Assembly: GCA_008364785.1 (NCBI GenBank)
Contig: VTTJ01000006.1
Location: forward strand, 327,387-351,386
Length of the DNA: 24,000 bases
DNA from: Bacillus sp. BGMRC 2118
GTDB lineage: Bacteria; Bacillota; Bacilli; Bacillales; SA4
Direction of reading: 5' to 3'
This document shows positions 2,925 through 21,927 of the stretch, piece after piece (position 1 is the stretch's first letter; each line of letters begins with the position of its first letter). Below the pieces are notes generated by a model that made no database searches, was not told the origin of the DNA, and was given only the letters and a program-made list of their open reading frames with translations. Position numbers and translations under genes: made by a program.

Positions 2925-3149
2925 TTATGCATGCTTCATTAATTCGTGATATTCAAGTGCTAGTTTGTAAAATAATTGATCATCCCGTTTATCTAGAGCA
3001 TGATCAATTTCAATACCTAACTTTTTTACTTTCGCGGTAAATATTATTTCATCGACAATCATTTGTACATAAATATTTTCAGTTACTTCTTTGTTTCCTT
3101 TCATTGCTTCTTTTTTCATCAGTTCAGAATAGGATGGCCGTTTTTTCAT
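2925..3149 (-). CDS. IDEAL domain-containing small protein (YhzC-like position next to comK)
   Basis: The sequence IEIDHALDKRDDQLFYKLALEY matches the IDEAL-domain pattern (ID.ALD...D...F..L). The protein is 74 aa and lies upstream of comK on the opposite strand. Confidence 0.7.
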   Translation of the reverse strand: MKKRPSYSELMKKEAMKGNKEVTENIYVQMIVDEIIFTAKVKKLGIEIDHALDKRDDQLFYKLALEYHELMKHA

Positions 3150-3274
3150 GATTGATCACTCCTGTCAGTGTTTAGAAGTTCTCGTGTAACGGTTTGTTTA
3201 ATGATAGTGGTCTCCCCATTATAATCAATAACAAATTAATTTTCAATAATATTCTGAATATTTAATCTTCTAAT

Positions 3275-3283: not shown

Positions 3284-3355
3284 AATAGAAAGTGGTCTTT
3301 TTTCGTGGATAAGATAGCTTTTTTAGGAGCATCCTAATAAGGGAGGTGTAAGTAA

Positions 3356-8986: not shown

Positions 8987-11900
8987 ATGTCCTCCTCTTC
9001 TATTCTTCATACGAAATTAATTCCACCAAGTATAAAAGATGATATATTACGCAGACCCACCTTGACGAAGAAGCTGCATTCTATCACTACAGTACCGTTA
9101 ACGATTGTACACTCTGGTCCAGGCTATGGGAAAAGTACAGCTGTCTCCACCTTTTTATCTGATTTACGAAAAACGTACTGCTGGTATAGTATATCAAGCT
9201 ATGATGACGAGCTAATCCCCTTTTTGACCTACTTCATTTATGCGATTAAAGGACAGTTTTCAGGATTTGGTGATGAGTTAATCCACTACATAAATAAGAT
9301 GAACCGATATGGAAGAGATGAAGAAATTCGTAGCTTGAGTGCCTTATTAGTAAATGAAATTATGGAGCTTAACTCTGAATTCATAATGATTATAGACGAT
9401 TTGCATCTTGTCCAACATTCAAATCAAATTGACGAGTGGTTAGTATGGTTTATTGAAAATATTCCGCACAATCTAAGGATGGTATTTATCAGTAGAAATC
9501 GTCCTCAATGGGGGATTATGAGTTCGTTGAAGCTGAAAGGTCTTTTACTAGAAATAGGTGAGAAGGATCTGGCATTTTCTCAAGAAGACATTGAAGCATG
9601 GTTTACAGACGTTTATAGCATGGAGCTGGACGAAAAAGAAATACAGCAGATTTATCAGCTAACCGAAGGGTGGATTATTGCCCTGCAAATGATCATCCAA
9701 CAGTTAGGTCACCACCGTGATATCTCAAAGCTGTTAAAAAATAAATATACGTCTATGGAAGACCTGTTTCATTTCTTGGCAATGGAGGTTCTTGTTAAGC
9801 AAGCTCCGATGGTTCAGCAGTTTTTAGAGCAAACGTGTATTTTCGATGAAATAACACCGCAACTTTGTGATGAGGTATTAGGAATCTCAGGTTCTAGGGA
9901 TATGCTGGAATTATTGCAGCAAAAGAACTTATTTTTACAATCAATCGGTCAAAATCAGTATCGGTATCATGCACTTTTTAAAGAGTTTCTAGAACGACAG
10001 CTCGTTCTCCAACAAGATAAATATAAACAGTTACACAGGAGAGCCTCTGATTATTATCGCAGAAGAAGTCATGTAGAGCTGGCCATTTACCACTTAGAGA
10101 AATTAGAAAAACATGATGAAGTAGCCTACTTATTAAATGAATATGGAGAAACGTTAATTCAGAATGGAAAGCTTGAGAGTTTATTGGAACGCCTAAGAAA
10201 AGTGTCAGATGATCAGAAGCAGGTGTTTTATCGACTGTATTATTTACAAGGTGAAGTACTTCGTTATCAATGCCTGTACAAGGAGTCAGAAGAAAATTAT
10301 CAAAAAGCATCGATGCTCGCAAATAGAAGAGGTGATCATGAGGGAGAATTAAAAGCACTTCAAGGGCAGGCATACATATACTTAGACACAATTTCCCCAG
10401 GTAAGGCAGATCGCCTACTTCAACGAGCAATTGAAATTATGGAAAAAAATGAAAGCGCTTTAGAAATAGAAAAGGCCCGGCTTTATTGCCTAATGGCCGA
10501 AAACTTAGTAAATGCAGGGCAAGCAAAAAAAGCGGAAAAGTGGTTTGAGAAAGCAATAGAACATGATTTGTTGGAGGATATCGGAAATTTAGAAGCAAGG
10601 TTAAAACTGAGGACAGGACAATTAAGTGAAGCAAAACGAATATTATTTAATAAGAAAAACTTTGAGCTTCAGGAAACGCATTCACACTTGCAACAATCAC
10701 ATCGAGAAACGAATCTTCTATTGTCATTAATTGAATGCTTCGTTGGGAAGCCAGAATCGGCAAAGGAATTAGCTGAGATCGGGATTCAAGATGGTATTCG
10801 CTATAAAGCCCCTTTTGTAGAGGCGTGTGGTTGGATTCGTATGGGGCATGCTGTCCAACTAATCGGACGATATGATTCTAACTTAGCAAAAAAATGCTAT
10901 GATACAGCTCTTCATATGATGGATGATTTAGATGTGCCGCGTGGGAAGGCTGAGCCGTTAATGGGACTCTCGATTGTGTATGGCGCTGATGGGGCTTATG
11001 AAAAGGCAATGGAATTCGGAAAGCATGCCCTTGCTGAAACAGAAAGAGTGAATGATTCATGGCTTTCTGCATGTATTAAATTATGCATTGCTATAACATG
11101 CTCCTATGCCAGTAAAATAGACGAAACAGAAGATTGGCTACATAAGGCAAACGATCAATTCCACTTCTGCGGGGACCAATATGGCATTTGTATTACAATG
11201 CTCTGGAAGTCCATTCATTATTACCAACTTGAAAAATGGACACCATTTCAAGAAGCATTTACTAGCTTCTTAAATTATGTTCAAATTGGAAACTATGAAT
11301 ATATTCTTACTCAGCAGACAATCTTTGGCCCAAGAGACTTACAATCTATCACACCATTACTGATTGAAGCGCAGGCTCAAGGGATACAACGGCAATATGT
11401 AACCTATTTATTAAATGAGCTTGGACTTCATGATGTTGAAAGTCATCCTGGTTATACGCTTAGAGTCCAAACATTAGGGAGATTTAGAGTGTGGATTGGT
11501 GATAAAGAGGTACGTGAAAAGGATTGGCAACGAGGAAAGGCAAAGGAACTATTTGAGTTATTCATTACAAAGCGGCATCAGTATTTCCAAAAAGATACCC
11601 TTTACCAACTACTATGGGCAGATGTAGACGAAAAGGCTGCATCAAGAGATTTTAAAGTGGCGTTTAATGCACTTCATAATGCGATAGAACCTCAGCGTAA
11701 AGCAAGAACGAATCCATTCTTCTTTAAACGTGAAGGCCAGTCATATGGGGTAAATCCGAAAGCGAGTATGTATTTAGATGCGGAGGAGTTTGAACGCTGG
11801 ATCCGAGCTGGTTTAAAAGAGAAGGATAATGAAAAAGCCTTCAATTTCTTATCTAAAGGATTAGAACTATATGATGGAGACTACTTACCCGAACGTCGGT

Positions 11901-12214
11901 ATGAAGAGTGGTGCATAGCTGAGCGAGAACGGTTACTCGTCTATTACTTGAGAGGAGCAGAAAAGCTAGCGCAACTTTCAGTCCAAAAGTCGCAATACGA
12001 TGAAGCCATACACTGGTGTGAAAATATTTTAGAAAAAGATAATACGTGGGAAGAAGCGTATCGATTATTGATGTATTGCTTTTATCAAAAAAATAACAGA
12101 CCCCTGGCAATCAGGTGGTATAAAAAGTGCTGCAATAGCTTAGAAAATGAGCTAGGTGTAGCACCTATGGAACCGACAAAACAAATGTTTGAAATGATCA
12201 CGAAGATGGGGTAG
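8987..12214 (+). CDS. large transcriptional regulator: N-terminal MalT-like STAND/AAA ATPase, central TPR-like helical repeats, C-terminal SARP module (OmpR-type winged helix plus BTAD)
   Basis: MalT-like N-terminus (LHTKLIPPS...RRPTL), Walker A GPGYGKST (aa 44-51), Walker B IMIIDDLH and LTEGWIIALQM. The C-terminus has YTLRVQTLGRFRVWIGDKEV...WQRGKAKELFELF (wHTH) followed by GDYLPERRYEEWCIAERERL...AIRWYKKCCNSLENELGVAPMEPT (BTAD). Confidence 0.85.
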   Translation: MSSSSILHTKLIPPSIKDDILRRPTLTKKLHSITTVPLTIVHSGPGYGKSTAVSTFLSDLRKTYCWYSISSYDDELIPFLTYFIYAIKGQFSGFGDELIHYINKMNRYGRDEEIRSLSALLVNEIMELNSEFIMIIDDLHLVQHSNQIDEWLVWFIENIPHNLRMVFISRNRPQWGIMSSLKLKGLLLEIGEKDLAFSQEDIEAWFTDVYSMELDEKEIQQIYQLTEGWIIALQMIIQQLGHHRDISKLLKNKYTSMEDLFHFLAMEVLVKQAPMVQQFLEQTCIFDEITPQLCDEVLGISGSRDMLELLQQKNLFLQSIGQNQYRYHALFKEFLERQLVLQQDKYKQLHRRASDYYRRRSHVELAIYHLEKLEKHDEVAYLLNEYGETLIQNGKLESLLERLRKVSDDQKQVFYRLYYLQGEVLRYQCLYKESEENYQKASMLANRRGDHEGELKALQGQAYIYLDTISPGKADRLLQRAIEIMEKNESALEIEKARLYCLMAENLVNAGQAKKAEKWFEKAIEHDLLEDIGNLEARLKLRTGQLSEAKRILFNKKNFELQETHSHLQQSHRETNLLLSLIECFVGKPESAKELAEIGIQDGIRYKAPFVEACGWIRMGHAVQLIGRYDSNLAKKCYDTALHMMDDLDVPRGKAEPLMGLSIVYGADGAYEKAMEFGKHALAETERVNDSWLSACIKLCIAITCSYASKIDETEDWLHKANDQFHFCGDQYGICITMLWKSIHYYQLEKWTPFQEAFTSFLNYVQIGNYEYILTQQTIFGPRDLQSITPLLIEAQAQGIQRQYVTYLLNELGLHDVESHPGYTLRVQTLGRFRVWIGDKEVREKDWQRGKAKELFELFITKRHQYFQKDTLYQLLWADVDEKAASRDFKVAFNALHNAIEPQRKARTNPFFFKREGQSYGVNPKASMYLDAEEFERWIRAGLKEKDNEKAFNFLSKGLELYDGDYLPERRYEEWCIAERERLLVYYLRGAEKLAQLSVQKSQYDEAIHWCENILEKDNTWEEAYRLLMYCFYQKNNRPLAIRWYKKCCNSLENELGVAPMEPTKQMFEMITKMG

Positions 12215-12299
12215 GCAGAAGTAGCTACGAGGTTATTAGTTTTCGGAGGAGTAGCTGATTTATTGGTATTATCACTGAAAAGAGGGGGGAGATAGGTGA

Positions 12300-12590
12300 T
12301 AGGACTCGCCAATGACTGAGTTGGATTCGCCAATTAGGAGTCGAGAATCGCTAATAAAAGAGTAGATTTCGCTAATGAGAAGTCAGAACTCGCTAATAAA
12401 AGAGTAGATTTCGCTAATGAGAAGTCAGAACTCGCCAATAAAAGGGTAGATGTCGCTAATAAGAAGTCAGAACTCGCCAATAAAAGGGTAGATTTCGCTA
12501 TTAAAATAGTAAAATTCGCCAGTAACTAGGCTAATTTCGATGATAGCAGTATCGGTTGGCTGATATATGACTAATTTCGCTAATCAAATA
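12300..12590 (+). repeat. phased tandem array: 21-bp unit (core TCGCTAAT/TCGCCAAT), 42-bp higher-order unit, about 14 copies
   Basis: Cores start at 12306, 12327, 12348, 12369, 12390, 12411, 12432, 12453, 12474, 12495, 12516 and 12537, each exactly 21 bp after the last. Degenerate copies follow near 12557 and 12577. 12348-12389 and 12390-12431 are identical 42-mers. Confidence 0.95.
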
Positions 12591-12658
12591 CTTTTAAGAA
12601 AAGCAATATCAAAGTAATTACTTCTAGTCTAACAGAAATTCATTAAGTAAAAGCTATA

Positions 12659-12705
12659 ACGCAGGTGCAGTCATGCTAGAGACAAGAGCACTTGCGTTTT
12701 TTTTT
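12659..12705 (+). terminator. intrinsic terminator downstream of the repeat array
   Basis: ACGCAGGTGC (12659-12668) pairs with GCACTTGCGT (12688-12697), with one G-U pair, followed by 9 T. Confidence 0.8.
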
Positions 12706-12740
12706 AAAGCAAAAGGAAGGACATCATAGTACTTATTTAT

Positions 12741-12781
12741 ATTTGTAACTCATTTGTAACCACTACCGATTACGATACAAT
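12741..12781 (+). promoter_or_regulatory. operon promoter with a direct-repeat operator (ATTTGTAAC x2, 11-bp spacing)
   Basis: ATTTGTAAC occurs at 12741-12749 and 12752-12760. -10 candidates are TACGAT (12771-12776) and TACAAT (12776-12781). The same 20-nt motif is found at 21855-21874. Confidence 0.6.
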
Positions 12782-12825
12782 CAACGTTTCCACGTTAGGA
12801 GATGTAACGAAAAGGGGGAAGTGAC

Positions 12826-14055
12826 ATGGGTAAGAAAAAATGGCATCGTAGTTTATCTTTATTAATGCTAGCATTTGTTCTTCTTTTATCAGCATGTTCC
12901 GGCACAACGACAACAGATGAGGGAAATGGAGATTCTGAGGAAAGCAAGAAACCAATAAAGGTTGGTGTTTTGGCATCTATGACAGGTCCTCTTGAAGCAT
13001 ATGGCAAACAATCCATTCAAGGATTTGAGCTGGGCTTGGATTATGCAACAGATGGAACGAGAGAGGTAAACGGTCAAAAAATTGAATTTATCGTAGAAGA
13101 TACGGAAACAAAGCCAGAGGTTGCAATTCAAAAAGCAACAAAGTTATTAGAGGAAGATGAAGTTGATTTCTTAGTTGGATCTTCAAGTTCAGGTGACACA
13201 TTGGCTGTACTACCGCTTGCTGAAGAGTATGAAAAAATCATGGTGGTTGAACCGGCTGTAGCTGATAGTATCACAGGTTCAGAGTTTAATAAGTATATTT
13301 TTAGAACTTCTCGTAACTCTTCACAAGATGCGGTAGCAGGAGCAGCTGCCATTGCAGATAAAGGGGTGAAAATTGCAACCTTTGCTCCAGATTCATCGTT
13401 CGGTCAAGACGGGATCGCTGCATTTAAAGAAGCCGCATTAGATCTTGGTGCGGAAATCGTACATGAAGAGTATGCAGATCCTGCTGCTACTGACTTCACT
13501 TCTAACATTCAAAAGATTATTGAAGCAAAACCTGATTACTTATTTGTTGTTTGGGCAGGGGCAAATTCTCCTTGGAACCAGATTTCAGATATGAAGGTAC
13601 AAGACAAAGGGATTAAAATCTCAACAGGTGCTCCTGACATTGCGGCACTATCTACCATGAATGCTTTAGTAGGGATGGAAGGGTTCACCGTATATTATCA
13701 TGACCTACCACAAAACGATATTAATAAATGGTTAGTAGAAGAGCATAAGAAGCGATTTGACGGAACAGTCCCAGATCTGTTTACTCCTGGTGGAATGAGT
13801 GCAGCCATTGCAATTGTAGAAGCAATCAAGGAAACAAAAGGAGATACAGATGCTGAAACGTTAATTGAAGCGATGGAAGGAATGAGCTTCGAAACGCCTA
13901 AAGGGAAGATGACTTTTAGACCCGAAGATCACCAGGCCCTTCAATCACTATATGCGATTCGTTTAGAAAAGAAAGACGGCGTTGACTATCCGGTTCCTGT
14001 ATTGATTCGTGAACTCACACCAGAAGAAACAGCACCACCAATTCGTAATAAGTAA
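12826..14055 (+). CDS. ABC transporter substrate-binding lipoprotein, LivK / branched-chain amino acid (type I PBP) family
   Basis: Lipobox LLLSAC, then KVGVLASMTGPLEAYGKQSIQGFELGLDYA, which is typical of Peripla_BP_6/LivK-type binding proteins. RBS AAGGGGGA. Confidence 0.88.
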   Translation: MGKKKWHRSLSLLMLAFVLLLSACSGTTTTDEGNGDSEESKKPIKVGVLASMTGPLEAYGKQSIQGFELGLDYATDGTREVNGQKIEFIVEDTETKPEVAIQKATKLLEEDEVDFLVGSSSSGDTLAVLPLAEEYEKIMVVEPAVADSITGSEFNKYIFRTSRNSSQDAVAGAAAIADKGVKIATFAPDSSFGQDGIAAFKEAALDLGAEIVHEEYADPAATDFTSNIQKIIEAKPDYLFVVWAGANSPWNQISDMKVQDKGIKISTGAPDIAALSTMNALVGMEGFTVYYHDLPQNDINKWLVEEHKKRFDGTVPDLFTPGGMSAAIAIVEAIKETKGDTDAETLIEAMEGMSFETPKGKMTFRPEDHQALQSLYAIRLEKKDGVDYPVPVLIRELTPEETAPPIRNK

Positions 14056-14066
14056 TGAGCCATTCA

Positions 14067-14100
14067 AAAAGGAACTTATGGTAAAACGTAAGTTCCTTTT
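14067..14100 (+). terminator. intra-operon hairpin after the binding-protein gene (partial terminator or mRNA stabiliser)
   Basis: AAAAGGAACTTA (14067-14078) pairs with TAAGTTCCTTTT (14089-14100), a perfect 12-bp stem. Only 4 U are present and they lie within the stem. Confidence 0.5.
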
Positions 14101-14177
14101 CGCTAATAAAACGTATTTAACATCTTTTGCCTGGTTCTCACGGAGAGGATCTAATTCTATATAAGTAGGTGAATCAT

Positions 14178-14939
14178 ATGAGTAACATTATTGAAACGAA
14201 GGATTTAACCATTTCATTTGGTGCGCATACCGCAGTAGACCAAGTGAACTTTTCAGTGCCGTCTCAACATTTTAAGTCTATTATTGGGCCAAACGGTGCA
14301 GGAAAAACAACGTTTTTCAATTTATTAAGTGGGCAACTGTCTCCAACAAAAGGTGAAGTTTTTCTTAAAGGGGAAAATATAACGAAGCTGTCACCTACGG
14401 AACGTACTCGGAAAGGAATTGGTCGTTCTTTTCAAATCACAAATGTATTTCCGAATTTAACAGTACTTGAAAATGTAAGACTTGCAGTGCAGTCGAAGCA
14501 CGGAGTTCGATATAACTTTTTATCTCATTTTCAGAGCTTCCGGGGACATGAAGAAGAATCACATGAGTTACTTCGAAAAGTACTACTTGATTCTAAAGCA
14601 CATTCACTCGCAAAAAACTTAGCTCATGGTGAAAAACGCAAACTGGAAATTGCGATGTTATTAGCATTAGAAACAGAAGTGATTCTCCTTGATGAACCAA
14701 CAGCTGGCATGTCAATTGAGGAAGTTCCAACCATTCTTGAAGTGATTAAACAAATAAAAGAGGAAGGATCGAGAACAATCATTCTAATCGAACACAAAAT
14801 GGATATGATTTTAGATTTATCTGATTCAGTTACTGTTTTATTTAATGGCACGTTGTTAGCAGACGGGACACCACAAGAGATTATGGATAATGAAACGGTA
14901 CAAAAAGCATATTTAGGGGGCTTATACGATGCTTCTTAG
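14178..14939 (+). CDS. ABC transporter ATP-binding protein, LivG-like
   Basis: Walker A GPNGAGKTT, signature-like HGEKRKLEIA and Walker B ILLDEPTAG. I prefer ATG 14178 (AGGTG 6 nt upstream) over GTG 14169. Confidence 0.9.
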   Translation: MSNIIETKDLTISFGAHTAVDQVNFSVPSQHFKSIIGPNGAGKTTFFNLLSGQLSPTKGEVFLKGENITKLSPTERTRKGIGRSFQITNVFPNLTVLENVRLAVQSKHGVRYNFLSHFQSFRGHEEESHELLRKVLLDSKAHSLAKNLAHGEKRKLEIAMLLALETEVILLDEPTAGMSIEEVPTILEVIKQIKEEGSRTIILIEHKMDMILDLSDSVTVLFNGTLLADGTPQEIMDNETVQKAYLGGLYDAS

Positions 14940-15630
14940 GGTAGAACATATCGAAACGTACATTGAACAGTATCATATTTTACAAGGAGTTTCCATCGTT
15001 GCCAACAAGGGTGAAGTAACTGTGCTACTTGGTAGAAATGGAGCAGGAAAAACAACAACACTTCGTTCCATTATGGGGCTTAATCCGGCAGCAAAAGGAA
15101 AGATTTTATATAAGGAAAAAGAGATACAAAACCTTCCAACCTATGAAATTGCAAAACTGGGAATTGGTTATGTACCAGAAAACCAAGGGATATTTGCCGA
15201 TCTCACAGTAGAAGAAAATATGAAGGTTGCCATTCGAAAGCAGGATGGTGAAACGATGAAACGACTTGATTGGATTTTAGAATTGTTTCCAGATTTAAAG
15301 AAGTTTTGGAAAAAGGCTGGCGGAACATTAAGCGGAGGTCAGAAGCAGATGCTCTCTATCTCCAGAGCGTTTATCGGAAATAATGAATTGTTGCTTATTG
15401 ACGAACCAAGCAAGGGACTTGCGCCAATCGTTGTAGAAAGCGTCATGAATGCGATTCAAGAATTAAAAAAGGAAGCGACAATCATATTAGTGGAACAAAA
15501 CTTCATGATGGCTAGCAACATTGGTGATTACTTTTACATCGTAGATGATGGACGGAGTGTACTTGATGGAAAGATGGAACTATTAAAGAAAGATGAAATA
15601 CTACGTAAAAAATACTTAGGGATTGCGTAA
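14929..15630 (+). CDS. ABC transporter ATP-binding protein, LivF-like
   Basis: Walker A GRNGAGKTT, signature LSGGQKQML and Walker B LLLIDEPSKGL. It overlaps the upstream gene by 11 nt. Confidence 0.9.
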   Translation: MLLRVEHIETYIEQYHILQGVSIVANKGEVTVLLGRNGAGKTTTLRSIMGLNPAAKGKILYKEKEIQNLPTYEIAKLGIGYVPENQGIFADLTVEENMKVAIRKQDGETMKRLDWILELFPDLKKFWKKAGGTLSGGQKQMLSISRAFIGNNELLLIDEPSKGLAPIVVESVMNAIQELKKEATIILVEQNFMMASNIGDYFYIVDDGRSVLDGKMELLKKDEILRKKYLGIA

Positions 15631-15646
15631 GAGAGGAGGAAGCCTT

Positions 15647-16510
15647 GTGGAAGTATTGGTTAATTTGCTTATAAACGGTTTAGCGACAGGGATGTTAATT
15701 TTCTTACTGGCAGCAGGATTAACACTTATATTCGGATTAATGGACGTCCTGAATTTTGCTCATGGTGGATTGTTTGCTTGGGGAGCGTATGCGGGAGTAT
15801 GGTCTTATGGAGTAACAGACAGCTTCTTAGTCGGTATTATATGTGCAATCGCAGTCGGACTTGTTTTAGGCTTGTTAATGGAAAAGTTTATAATCGGGCC
15901 AGTATATGGAAATCATGTACAACAAATCTTAATCACTCTCGGCGTCATGCTTGTTTTAGGGGAAATGTTGAAGGTAGTTTGGGGACCGAACCAGTTAAGC
16001 GCGAAAACACCTGAGTGGTTAACGGGAAGCTGGGAATGGGGAGACATTATCCTTATTAAATACCGTTTATTTATAATCATTGTAGGATTTTTAGTTTTCC
16101 TTGCCGTACATCTTCTCCTTACAAAAACAAAGCTAGGATTAGTTGTGAGAGCAGGAGTTATGGATAAAGAGATGGTGCAAGCGTTAGGAATTAACATTAA
16201 GCGAGTATTTATGTATGTGTTTATGATTGGTTCTGCAATGGCCGCACTTGGTGGAGTATTACTCGGACCCTATTCTGGTGTCATCTATGCAGAAATGGGG
16301 ATGGAATTTGCAATTCTGGCCTTCATCGTTGTTGTAATAGGTGGAATGGGAAGTATTACGGGTTCAGTTATGGCAGCGATTTTAGTTGGAGTAACTGGTT
16401 CTCTAATGGCGTATTTCGTTCCCGAGTTATCACTTGCAGTTAACATGATGTTAATGATGATTGTATTAATTTTTAGACCTCAAGGGTTATTTCAATTGAA
16501 AAAGGGGTGA
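15647..16510 (+). CDS. branched-chain amino acid-type ABC permease, LivH-like
   Basis: Polytopic membrane protein beginning (M)EVLVNLLINGLATGMLIFLLAAGLTLIFG, which is typical of LivH. GTG 15647 has AGGAGGA 6 nt upstream. Confidence 0.85.
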   Translation: MEVLVNLLINGLATGMLIFLLAAGLTLIFGLMDVLNFAHGGLFAWGAYAGVWSYGVTDSFLVGIICAIAVGLVLGLLMEKFIIGPVYGNHVQQILITLGVMLVLGEMLKVVWGPNQLSAKTPEWLTGSWEWGDIILIKYRLFIIIVGFLVFLAVHLLLTKTKLGLVVRAGVMDKEMVQALGINIKRVFMYVFMIGSAMAALGGVLLGPYSGVIYAEMGMEFAILAFIVVVIGGMGSITGSVMAAILVGVTGSLMAYFVPELSLAVNMMLMMIVLIFRPQGLFQLKKG

Positions 16511-17535
16511 GGGTATTGGATAGATTTCGGAAAAGTTATCAAAAACCATTGTTCTATTACATCATCATCGGGATACTGTTAGTCCTTTTTCCTTTTATCA
16601 ATGATGAACGGGCAATGCTTATATTATTTACTCAGATCTTTATATTTGCGGTTTTAGCGATGAGCTATGATTTATTACTTGGATACACTGGTATCGTATC
16701 ATTTGGCCATGCGATGTTCTTTGGTATCGGTGCCTATTCAACAGGTATCTTTCTAGACCGTATGGATGGGTCGATTCTAGCTTTAGTAATAGGATTACTT
16801 GTTGGGGCGGTACTTTCGGCAGTCGTTAGCTTCGTTGTAGGAATTCTCTCCTTACGGTTGAAGAGCCACTTTTATGCAATGCTGACAATGGCATTTGCCG
16901 GATTGTTTTTAGTACTAGCGCAGAAATGGCGTTCTGTCACACATGGAAATGATGGCTTTACATTTAGTATTCCTGATGCATTTAAAGAAAGGGAAGTGCT
17001 ATATTTCACATCTCTATTCCTTATGATTCTAGTATTTTTTGGATTAAGACGTTTTACATCCTCACCGGTAGGAAAGGTGCTGCAGGCAATAAGAGAAAAT
17101 GAATCGAGAACAGAATCTCTAGGTTTTCATATTCTTCACTACAAAGTAATTGCTAGTGTAATAGCGGGTGTAATAGCGAGTTTTGCCGGATCTTTTTATG
17201 TACTCACTCTTCGTTTCGTCAATACTTCTGTTTTCACGATGGATATTACATTGGACGCATTATTAATGACGATTATTGGAGGAGTTGGAACGCTTGCAGG
17301 TGCGATTTTAGGTGCTGGGATTATTGAATTTGCTCATCACTGGTTAACAGGTCTGGCGAAGGTACATTGGATTTTCGAGAGATGGATTATTTTATTCGGA
17401 ATCGTTTATATTCTGTCTGTTATGTTCTTTCCAAAAGGAATTGTTGGAACAAGTAAGCATTGGTTTGAAAAACGTAAATATGCCAGGGTCAATGAAGGGC
17501 AATTAACAGACAAAAATGCGGATGTCATGAGGTAG
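16507..17535 (+). CDS. branched-chain amino acid-type ABC permease, LivM-like
   Basis: Polytopic protein containing LLLGYTGIVSFGHAMFFGIGAY, which is typical of LivM. The start is GTG 16507, or TTG 16516 which has better RBS spacing. Confidence 0.85.
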   Translation: MRVLDRFRKSYQKPLFYYIIIGILLVLFPFINDERAMLILFTQIFIFAVLAMSYDLLLGYTGIVSFGHAMFFGIGAYSTGIFLDRMDGSILALVIGLLVGAVLSAVVSFVVGILSLRLKSHFYAMLTMAFAGLFLVLAQKWRSVTHGNDGFTFSIPDAFKEREVLYFTSLFLMILVFFGLRRFTSSPVGKVLQAIRENESRTESLGFHILHYKVIASVIAGVIASFAGSFYVLTLRFVNTSVFTMDITLDALLMTIIGGVGTLAGAILGAGIIEFAHHWLTGLAKVHWIFERWIILFGIVYILSVMFFPKGIVGTSKHWFEKRKYARVNEGQLTDKNADVMR

Positions 17536-21854: not shown

Positions 21855-21890
21855 AATTGTAACTCATTTGCAACTACAGTTCCTTATAGT
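21855..21890 (+). promoter_or_regulatory. second copy of the direct-repeat operator plus a -10-like hexamer
   Basis: AATTGTAAC (21855-21863) and ATTTGCAAC (21866-21874) are spaced 11 bp apart. TATAGT (21885-21890) lies 10 nt downstream, the same geometry as at 12741-12776. Confidence 0.6.
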
Positions 21891-21927
21891 AAATCATATG
21901 AATATGTATGAAAAAGGAGAGAGTGCT

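Follow-up and report, generated by a model that had tools for sequence, protein, structure and literature searches.

The stretch of DNA analysed here (the window) comprises 24,000 nucleotides of Bacillus sp. BGMRC 2118 (contig VTTJ01000006.1, positions 327,387 to 351,386 of the forward strand), and near its middle a tandem array built on the core TCGCYAAT lies between a regulator gene and an ATP-binding cassette (ABC) transporter operon. The regulator gene (8987..12214, + strand) encodes a protein of 1075 aa. The array (12306..12557, +) starts 92 bp past its stop codon (12212-12214) and sits in its 3′ region, ahead of a terminator-like hairpin (12658..12706, +) with an 11-bp stem and a T9 run (minimum free energy −19.1 kcal/mol, z −2.3), which separates it from the operon promoter. 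A promoter-like site is located downstream of the hairpin at 12754-12781, while the promoter search found none in the array or just after it. The Liv-type operon itself (12826..17535, +) encodes, according to Pfam, a binding protein (Peripla_BP_6), two ATPases and two permeases.

The array consists of twelve 21-bp units, each with a core TCGCYAAT or a degenerate form of it plus a 13-nt spacer, as revealed by Tandem Repeats Finder (TRF), a printout in the 21-bp register and a motif count. The cores start at 12306, 12327, 12348, 12369, 12390, 12411, 12432, 12453, 12474, 12495, 12516 and 12537. The initial annotation had described twelve cores exactly 21 bp apart; the spacing was borne out, but the exact core is present in nine units only, and the last three are degenerate (TCGCTATT at 12495, TCGCCAGT at 12516 and TCGATGAT at 12537). 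Beyond these, two more degenerate copies had been claimed. An extra copy is indeed present, but it is a perfect core, TCGCTAAT, at 12577..12584 (+), 2 bp off the 21-bp register, and position ~12557 holds merely GGCTGATA. The proposed alternation of the spacers AAAAGAGTAGATT and GAGAAGTCAGAAC was found in the units between 12348 and 12494, allowing for point variants; the first two units and the last few do not show it. This regular part (12348..12494, +) has a 42-bp higher-order unit, for which TRF reported 4.7 copies with 88% matches and a score of 273, next to a weaker 21-bp period and an 84-bp period.

The two adjacent 42-mers at 12348-12389 and 12390-12431 are identical, as had been noticed, and this identity indicates that the extra units of the window array are recent. 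Most likely, the window copy is a lineage-specific, recently amplified array that reached 12-14 units by duplication of a 42-bp dimer. Counting TCGCYAAT in the window gave 13 occurrences against 1.3 expected, and none of 100 shuffles reached 13. The relics thought to reach back toward the regulator stop codon are weak: two inverted partial cores, CTAATAAC and CCAATAAA, can be read at 12219..12262 (−), and an inverted-repeat search with a seed of 7 returned nothing for them. The same search gave no inverted repeats in the array, which folds no better than its shuffles (z −0.21), and no Rfam match overlaps an array in the window or in eight related loci.

The array is a member of a family. A scan for three TCGCYAAT cores at 21-bp spacing, performed on one genome per species and with ~0.03 chance matches by our estimate, returned at least 120 blocks. 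Among the matches listed, ~28 blocks are genuine variable-spacer arrays of 3 to ~30 units each, hosted by Neobacillus mesonae, rhizophilus, citreus, novalis, drentensis, paridis, soli and vireti as well as by Mesobacillus, Bacillus sp. ISL-55, Bacillus sp. ISL-37 and Peribacillus. Several loci occur per genome, at least three in N. mesonae and at least six blocks in N. rhizophilus, so that many unlinked loci are documented for these two species, the genome of the window being known from 24 kb. The arrays are non-coding and their flanking genes are mutually unrelated (thiolase-like enzyme, M42 peptidase, xanthine permease, ATP sulfurylase, NERD protein, histidine kinase, enoyl-CoA hydratase, AtuA and homogentisate dioxygenase), with no mobile-element genes among those that flank the matches listed. 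A homologue of the regulator of the window was likewise absent from the 8-kb array blocks, which represent ~25 unrelated loci among the matches listed.

A logo of 149 units reads (A/T)AAT-TCGCYAAT-A(R)A, in which A(−2), T(−1) and the trailing A, R and A are conserved and the other 7-8 positions carry ~0.1 bit each. The family unit is composed of a ~13-14-bp core with the consensus AATTCGCYAATARA, the quasi-dyad ATTnGCnAAT at its centre, and ~7-8 free bases. Core-to-core distances of 20 and 21 bp both occur within one array. The core type varies by species: some Neobacillus have T alone, others C alone, and B. pinisoli has YTTGCRA. In metagenomes, the 42-mer of the window gave no match in a scan for copy-number variants, and the family pattern was recovered from two contigs only, both of them with the array upstream of sat. 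This array is found in N. mesonae in the order cysP-array-sat and in the two soil metagenome contigs as cysH-array-sat, with diverged spacers. The array gave no blastn match in plasmid and phage collections, and the viral matches of the pattern scan were rejected as coding repeats with identical spacers. The initial annotation had not recognized the array as a described element, and we found none in Rfam, in the plasmid and phage collections or in the literature on the core sequences and on 21-bp Bacillus repeats. The arrays make up a repeat family that is dispersed in bacterial genomes and distinguished by its phased units of core and spacer; no prior description of it was found.

Most of the listed matches outside Bacillaceae are 7-nt microsatellites, (TCGCYAA)n, which the scan catches because three times seven is 21, and these were discarded. 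As an observation in its own right, (TCGCCAA)n and (TCGCTAA)n occur far above chance in Planctomycetota, Chloroflexota, Acidobacteriota, cyanobacteria, Vibrio, Shewanella and Saccharibacteria (e.g., loci L012, L014, L100 and L116), and these heptanucleotide repeats recall the cyanobacterial STRR repeats.

Comparison of orthologous arrays separates the cores from the rest of the unit. At one locus in four Neobacillus species, five 12-bp cores are 96% identical, the spacers 55% and the left flank 61%. In N. rhizophilus and N. drentensis, where the array is flanked by a stop codon and a terminator common to both, the corresponding values are 91% for the cores, 24% for the spacers and 63% for the left flank. 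The pair N. soli and N. novalis, with 100%, 81% and 97%, respectively, is not informative, the two species being too close. In these alignments, purifying selection seems to act on the cores, as homogenization of whole units cannot yield conserved cores with diverged spacers. Constant cores, diverging spacers and a helical rather than codon-based spacing together suggest that the cores are most likely recognition sites.

From these observations, we consider, with about even confidence, that the array is a local expansion of a dispersed, helically phased family of sites that a putative sequence-specific DNA-binding protein would bind cooperatively on one face. The cores would be the recognition sites of this protein. 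As units repeated every 20-21 bp correspond to two helical turns, the putative protein could load side by side on one helix face. The window copy would have grown by duplication of the 42-bp dimer, and the neighbouring MalT-like/SARP regulator would neither need the array nor probably read it. The earlier suggestion that the phased array suits cooperative binding on one face therefore survives as a general reading, given the 20-21-bp spacing and the constancy of the cores against the drift of the spacers, but not with the adjacent regulator as the binder.

The regulator was the natural candidate. Its product is 100% identical to an annotated "transcriptional regulator" of Bacillus sp. BGMRC 2118. 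Pfam, profile searches and a structure model together describe a MalT-like STAND NTPase with TPR repeats and a C-terminal SARP module (winged helix and BTAD, residues ~820-1075). In the N-terminal part, a profile of 16 homologues matches the nucleotide-binding oligomerization domain (NOD) of MalT with E = 3e-55. The last 275 residues, used as a profile, match the SARP module of AfsR, and their AlphaFold model (pLDDT 87) superimposes on AfsR and EmbR with TM 0.72-0.79 over ~255 columns. A single-sequence search of the PDB with the C-terminus returned only TPR proteins, and the profile search and the structure model were needed to find the SARP module. The proposal of a STAND oligomerizer with an OmpR-type winged helix upstream of the array is thus supported by the MalT NOD match and by the predicted SARP module.

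Orthologous regulator-to-ABC loci were compared from eight other species, the regulators of which are 49-76% identical to that of the window. The synteny of regulator and ABC operon is kept in all nine species, the contig of the P0003 species stopping before the operon. None of the eight loci has a TCGCYAAT array, and each contains at most two scattered TCGCYAAT. In the P0005 species, the P0006 species, N. mesonae and N. soli, the distance from the stop codon to the operon is 90-174 bp without any repeat array; in B. timonensis it is ~740 bp of unrelated sequence, and in B. mesophilus ~400 bp with two copies of a ~126-bp element. B. pinisoli has ~1090 bp with nine cores of a different type, YTTGCRA, at 19-21-bp intervals, and the P0003 species, before its contig stops, has three YTTGCRA cores, two of them 21 bp apart. 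The regulators at these last two loci are 76% identical to that of the window, and the core is nonetheless different. In N. mesonae and N. soli, TCGCTAAT arrays are found elsewhere in the genome but not at this locus. The array is dispensable here, as the orthologous loci do without it.

Several side observations concern the same intergenic site. The phased arrays of B. pinisoli and a relative (L123 9299-9470 and L135 6318-6372; 19-21 bp) have the core (A/T)YTTGCRAsTTT, and their unit resembles Peribacillus TTTACTCGCCAATTTGG. The ~126-bp element between regulator and ABC operon is present in 6.4 tandem copies in B. pinisoli (L123 9480-10295) and in two in B. mesophilus (L121 9250-9530). The B. 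mesophilus element matches the Bacillaceae-1 RNA family (RF01690, 80.9 bits) at L121 9342-9408 on the minus strand, with another match at 522-588. One intergenic site therefore collects different repeat families, depending on the species.

A different motif is conserved at the ABC promoter. TGTAACY-N4-TGYAACY, followed after exactly 9 nt by TAnnnT, is present in the window and in each of the seven orthologous loci that extend to this promoter (L121 9555, L123 10295, L133 6254, L134 6243, L125 7880, L124 7324 and L126 7268). For the 17-mer TGTAACY-N4-TGYAACY, the window has two occurrences where chance predicts 0; each of the seven loci has one, and 128 unrelated loci have none. The first window copy, the probable operator and promoter site of the regulator (12744..12776, +), reads TGTAACT-catt-TGTAACC, 9 nt and TACGAT, with TACAAT at 12776-12781 as an alternative −10 box. 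The second (21858..21890, +), TGTAACT-catt-TGCAACT-N9-TATAGT, lies upstream of an acyl-CoA synthetase gene. SARP sites are heptameric direct repeats in 11-bp units over the −35 region, ending ~8 bp before the −10 box (PMC10972967, PMC11301090). Because of this SARP-defining architecture and its conservation at orthologous ABC promoters, the motif at the −35 region of the ABC operon is likely the operator of the regulator, and a regulon of two promoters is predicted. The start of the acyl-CoA synthetase open reading frame as called (GTG 21820) overlaps the second operator/promoter copy; a GTG near 21927, after AAAGGAGAG, is probably the real start. Between promoter and ribosome-binding site, the 5′ leader of the operon also keeps a dyad, AACGTTTCC(A)ACGT (window ~12783-12800, with equivalents in L121, L123, L133 and L134), possibly a further operator or a hairpin of the leader.

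Following the initial annotation, the array can be read as an operator or titration platform where the STAND/SARP regulator encoded next to it would oligomerize and so control the ABC operon. A MalT-type oligomerizing NTPase joined to a SARP winged helix and BTAD would suit such a role, as would the position of the array between the regulator gene and the operon and the 21-bp array at the same site in B. pinisoli and one relative. The spacing also agrees: an 8-nt core and a 13-nt spacer add up to 21 bp, i.e., whole helical turns, and 13 nt falls within the 4-15-nt spacers of SARP-bound direct repeats (PMC10972967). Nevertheless, six of the eight orthologous loci lack an array and the other two have another core despite regulators 76% identical, so that the array is not conserved with the regulator. 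The classical SARP position is occupied at the window and the seven loci by the TGTAACY motif, which the array core does not resemble and which recurs in the window 9 kb downstream. The operon promoter (12744-12781) is more than 200 bp away from the array, with the terminator-like hairpin in between; same-core arrays exist in other genera without a regulator homologue in their 8-kb blocks, and N. mesonae and N. soli carry them at loci other than this one. Binding of the array by the adjacent regulator is therefore very improbable. Compared with SARP operators in general, the array shares direct repeats on one helix face and a SARP-module regulator encoded next door, but it has at least 12 units rather than 2-3, abuts no promoter and is not kept in the orthologous loci. 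A neutral or selfish minisatellite, the window copy being functionless, produced by slippage or unequal exchange and tolerated at a 3′ intergenic site, is a more serious alternative, though we find it doubtful. The identical 42-mers and the 84-bp higher-order period speak for very recent amplification, the array is dispensable in orthologous loci, copy number ranges from 3 to ~30 units across the family, and these genomes contain many other tandem arrays (52-bp, 126-bp and other 21-bp types). Such an origin leaves unexplained the recurrence of the same core over many loci and genera, the 91-96% core identity against 24-55% for the spacers in orthologous arrays, and the constant 20-21-bp spacing. 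It can hold for the extra copies of the window even if the family is functional.

An action at the RNA level, with the repeats in a 3′ untranslated region or between cistrons offering multivalent docking to a small RNA or to a protein that binds RNA, is unlikely in our estimate. Arrays commonly start tens of bases past the upstream stop codon, several of them before a terminator or between genes of one operon, and that of the window lies between the regulator stop codon and the terminator-like hairpin. The core strand is that of the upstream gene in ~18 of 22 independent loci. Yet the arrays of L010, L019 and L020 are antisense to both flanking genes, and one conserved Neobacillus array, the last core of which is 14 nt before TATAAT, stands upstream of the −10 box and so outside a transcript; most arrays, including that of the window, abut no promoter. 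The repeats have neither secondary structure nor an Rfam match, and strict 20-21-nt spacing is what helical phasing of DNA predicts. A part of a mobile or replicative element, be it the iterons of an integrated replicon, a partition centromere or the end sites of a Tn7- or Mu-like transposase, is highly improbable. Iterons and the end sites of TnsB and MuA typically have periods of 20-22 bp, an inverted core copy opens the Mesobacillus-type arrays as in iteron origins, and the TnsB sites of the Tn7 right end presumably resemble Mesobacillus-type units such as CCAATAAAGTTGTAAACT. Against this, Pfam searches of all window genes and the genes beside the arrays examined gave no rep, par or transposase genes, the collections of plasmids and phages gave no matches and the viral ones are coding repeats, the arrays are stably orthologous between species in housekeeping contexts, and up to 30 units are unlike any transposon end. 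Finally, it is hardly credible that the array is cryptic or decayed coding sequence of a peptide with heptad repeats (…FANKRVD/FANEKSEL…). A forward frame runs through the array for 63 codons without a stop, and the variable Y is the third base of an Ala codon. This frame lacks a start codon, however, and the sole open reading frame called within the array has 48 aa, starts with TTG and lies on the other strand. Open frames are uninformative, being expected by chance, since with a 21-bp unit a frame that lacks stops in one copy lacks them in every copy. The switches between 20 and 21 bp within arrays exclude a codon-based reading, and related arrays contain in-frame stops.

The reading as protein-binding sites has to face difficulties of its own. 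The evidence for BGMRC 2118 itself is one array in 24 kb, the near-identical units of which are compatible with neutral expansion, and the core-versus-spacer alignments were anchored on the cores themselves. The bias of the core strand toward that of the upstream gene is also what an RNA-level role predicts, and some arrays are situated within operons or between stop codon and terminator, where a DNA-bound array has no obvious job. A search of the array neighbourhoods for a recurrent candidate reader gene returned only scattered two-component genes and acyl-CoA enzymes. Moreover, the core varies between species, with T or C at Y and, in B. pinisoli, YTTGCRA, so that its reader would have to evolve fast or be species-specific; the variation implies either a co-evolving reader or independent families. 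A wider proposal, namely genome-wide phased core-plus-spacer arrays in Neobacillus- and Mesobacillus-type bacilli read by a new DNA-binding protein of co-evolving specificity, is possible and is put forward tentatively.

The array was compared with known repeat systems and differs from each in at least one feature. Dispersed intergenic repeats are represented by REP/BIME in enterobacteria, MIRU in mycobacteria and STAR in Staphylococcus aureus. Like these, the arrays are scattered over many sites between genes or cistrons, frequently right behind a stop codon, with copy number varying by locus and a species-specific consensus, and STAR elements also have a conserved core interspersed with variable sequence. 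Unlike REP units, which are palindromic hairpins, the array units contain no inverted repeats and do not fold. The 20-21-bp, helically phased period differs from the 40-100-bp units of MIRU and the 40-60-bp spacing of STAR, small open reading frames span MIRU units but not array units, and the array cores, in contrast to these dispersed families, are demonstrably more conserved than the spacers in orthologous arrays.

In geometry, the closest parallels are binding sites. LytTR-type sites (AgrA, ComE, PlnC, YpdB/BtsR) are 9-10-bp direct repeats with 11-13-bp spacers and a period of ~21 bp. The arrays have the same two-turn period of ~21 bp and a short core followed by a non-conserved spacer, but known LytTR sites are pairs just upstream of a promoter and the arrays have 4-30 units at gene ends. 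There is no LytTR gene consistently near the arrays, a lytS read by eye at L004 being treated as coincidence. Plasmid iterons and type II partition centromeres (20-bp repeats in pSK41 parC) are cooperatively bound 20-22-bp tandem repeats, and some arrays also have an inverted repeat copy beside them. The arrays, however, are chromosomal and occur at many loci per genome without rep or par genes or homology to plasmids or phages. The LytTR response-regulator family is mentioned in PMC5859096, in which BldC of Streptomyces is described to multimerize head-to-tail on variable numbers of direct repeats. As with BldC, direct-repeat number is variable, one small protein could oligomerize along the DNA and the sites are AT-rich with fixed G/C; BldC units are 9 bp and contiguous while array units are 21 bp.

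Other candidates were rejected. In CRISPR, repeats are at least 23 nt and spacers at least ~26 nt, as against a total period of 21 bp here, and Pfam found no Cas families among the window genes. For a type III toxin-antitoxin system (ToxI-like), a terminator-like hairpin is present, but the next gene encodes Peripla_BP_6 and not a ToxN-type endoribonuclease, and the repeats are unstructured, whereas those of such systems fold into pseudoknotted units. Comparison by eye with the motifs of CodY, CcpA (cre), the ARG boxes, SinR, sigma-D, sigma-54 and ComK gave nothing convincing. The Spo0A box TGNCGAA fits the C-type core but not the T-type, and the species-specific variation of the core also speaks against it. 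Orientation by replication strand was set aside as well, since GC skew and gene strand are confounded and at least seven arrays oppose both.

The loci that were collected contain further repeats. Mesobacillus-type arrays open with an inverted repeat (ATTGGCGAACTGGAAA…TTTCCAGTTCGCCAAT), the right arm of which is the first core (L004, L120 ~5525-5478 on the minus strand, L050, L067 and L082). L004 has two such modules in tandem (3148-3192 and 3305-3340), with the cores TCGCCAATAAA and then TCGCTATAAAA, upstream of the lytS mentioned above. Other arrays of 21-bp period have the cores TACCGGYSACTTTC, TTGCAGATA and TTCGCCGATAAA (L075 6616-6783, L091 5951-6124, L044 6922-7012, L009 2194-2303 and L010 3707-3801), from which a 21-bp period seems general to repeat arrays in these genomes. 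In L010, two oppositely oriented arrays flank a gene read by eye as MaoC-like. Tandem arrays of 52 bp (3-6 copies, 83-91% matches) are also found in intergenic DNA of Neobacillus and Mesobacillus (L044 1-192, L050 9-272, L075 5299-5556, L091 7663-7986 and L030 7521-7696). Below the five-core array (L009 380-580, L034, L115 and L027), a TATAAT box is followed by ~130 nt of conserved non-coding sequence ending in a T-run. This sequence may be a small RNA or leader, the last core replacing the −35 element in its promoter.

These results bear on the regulator as well as on the family. An experiment on binding of the array by the regulator would probably fail, and the TGTAAC direct repeats at 12744 and 21858 are the likelier targets; from them, a small regulon is predicted for this hybrid of MalT NOD and SARP, a regulator found widely among Bacillaceae. 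If the arrays have no reader, the question is how a 13-bp core stays constant. If they are protein-binding sites as proposed, the system would be comparable in kind to REP-RAYT or to site clusters of nucleoid-associated proteins, and the arrays could serve as a nucleoprotein roadblock, insulator or organizer at gene ends and inside operons. The reader of the arrays, if found, could point to a new DNA-binding system on the chromosome of soil bacilli.

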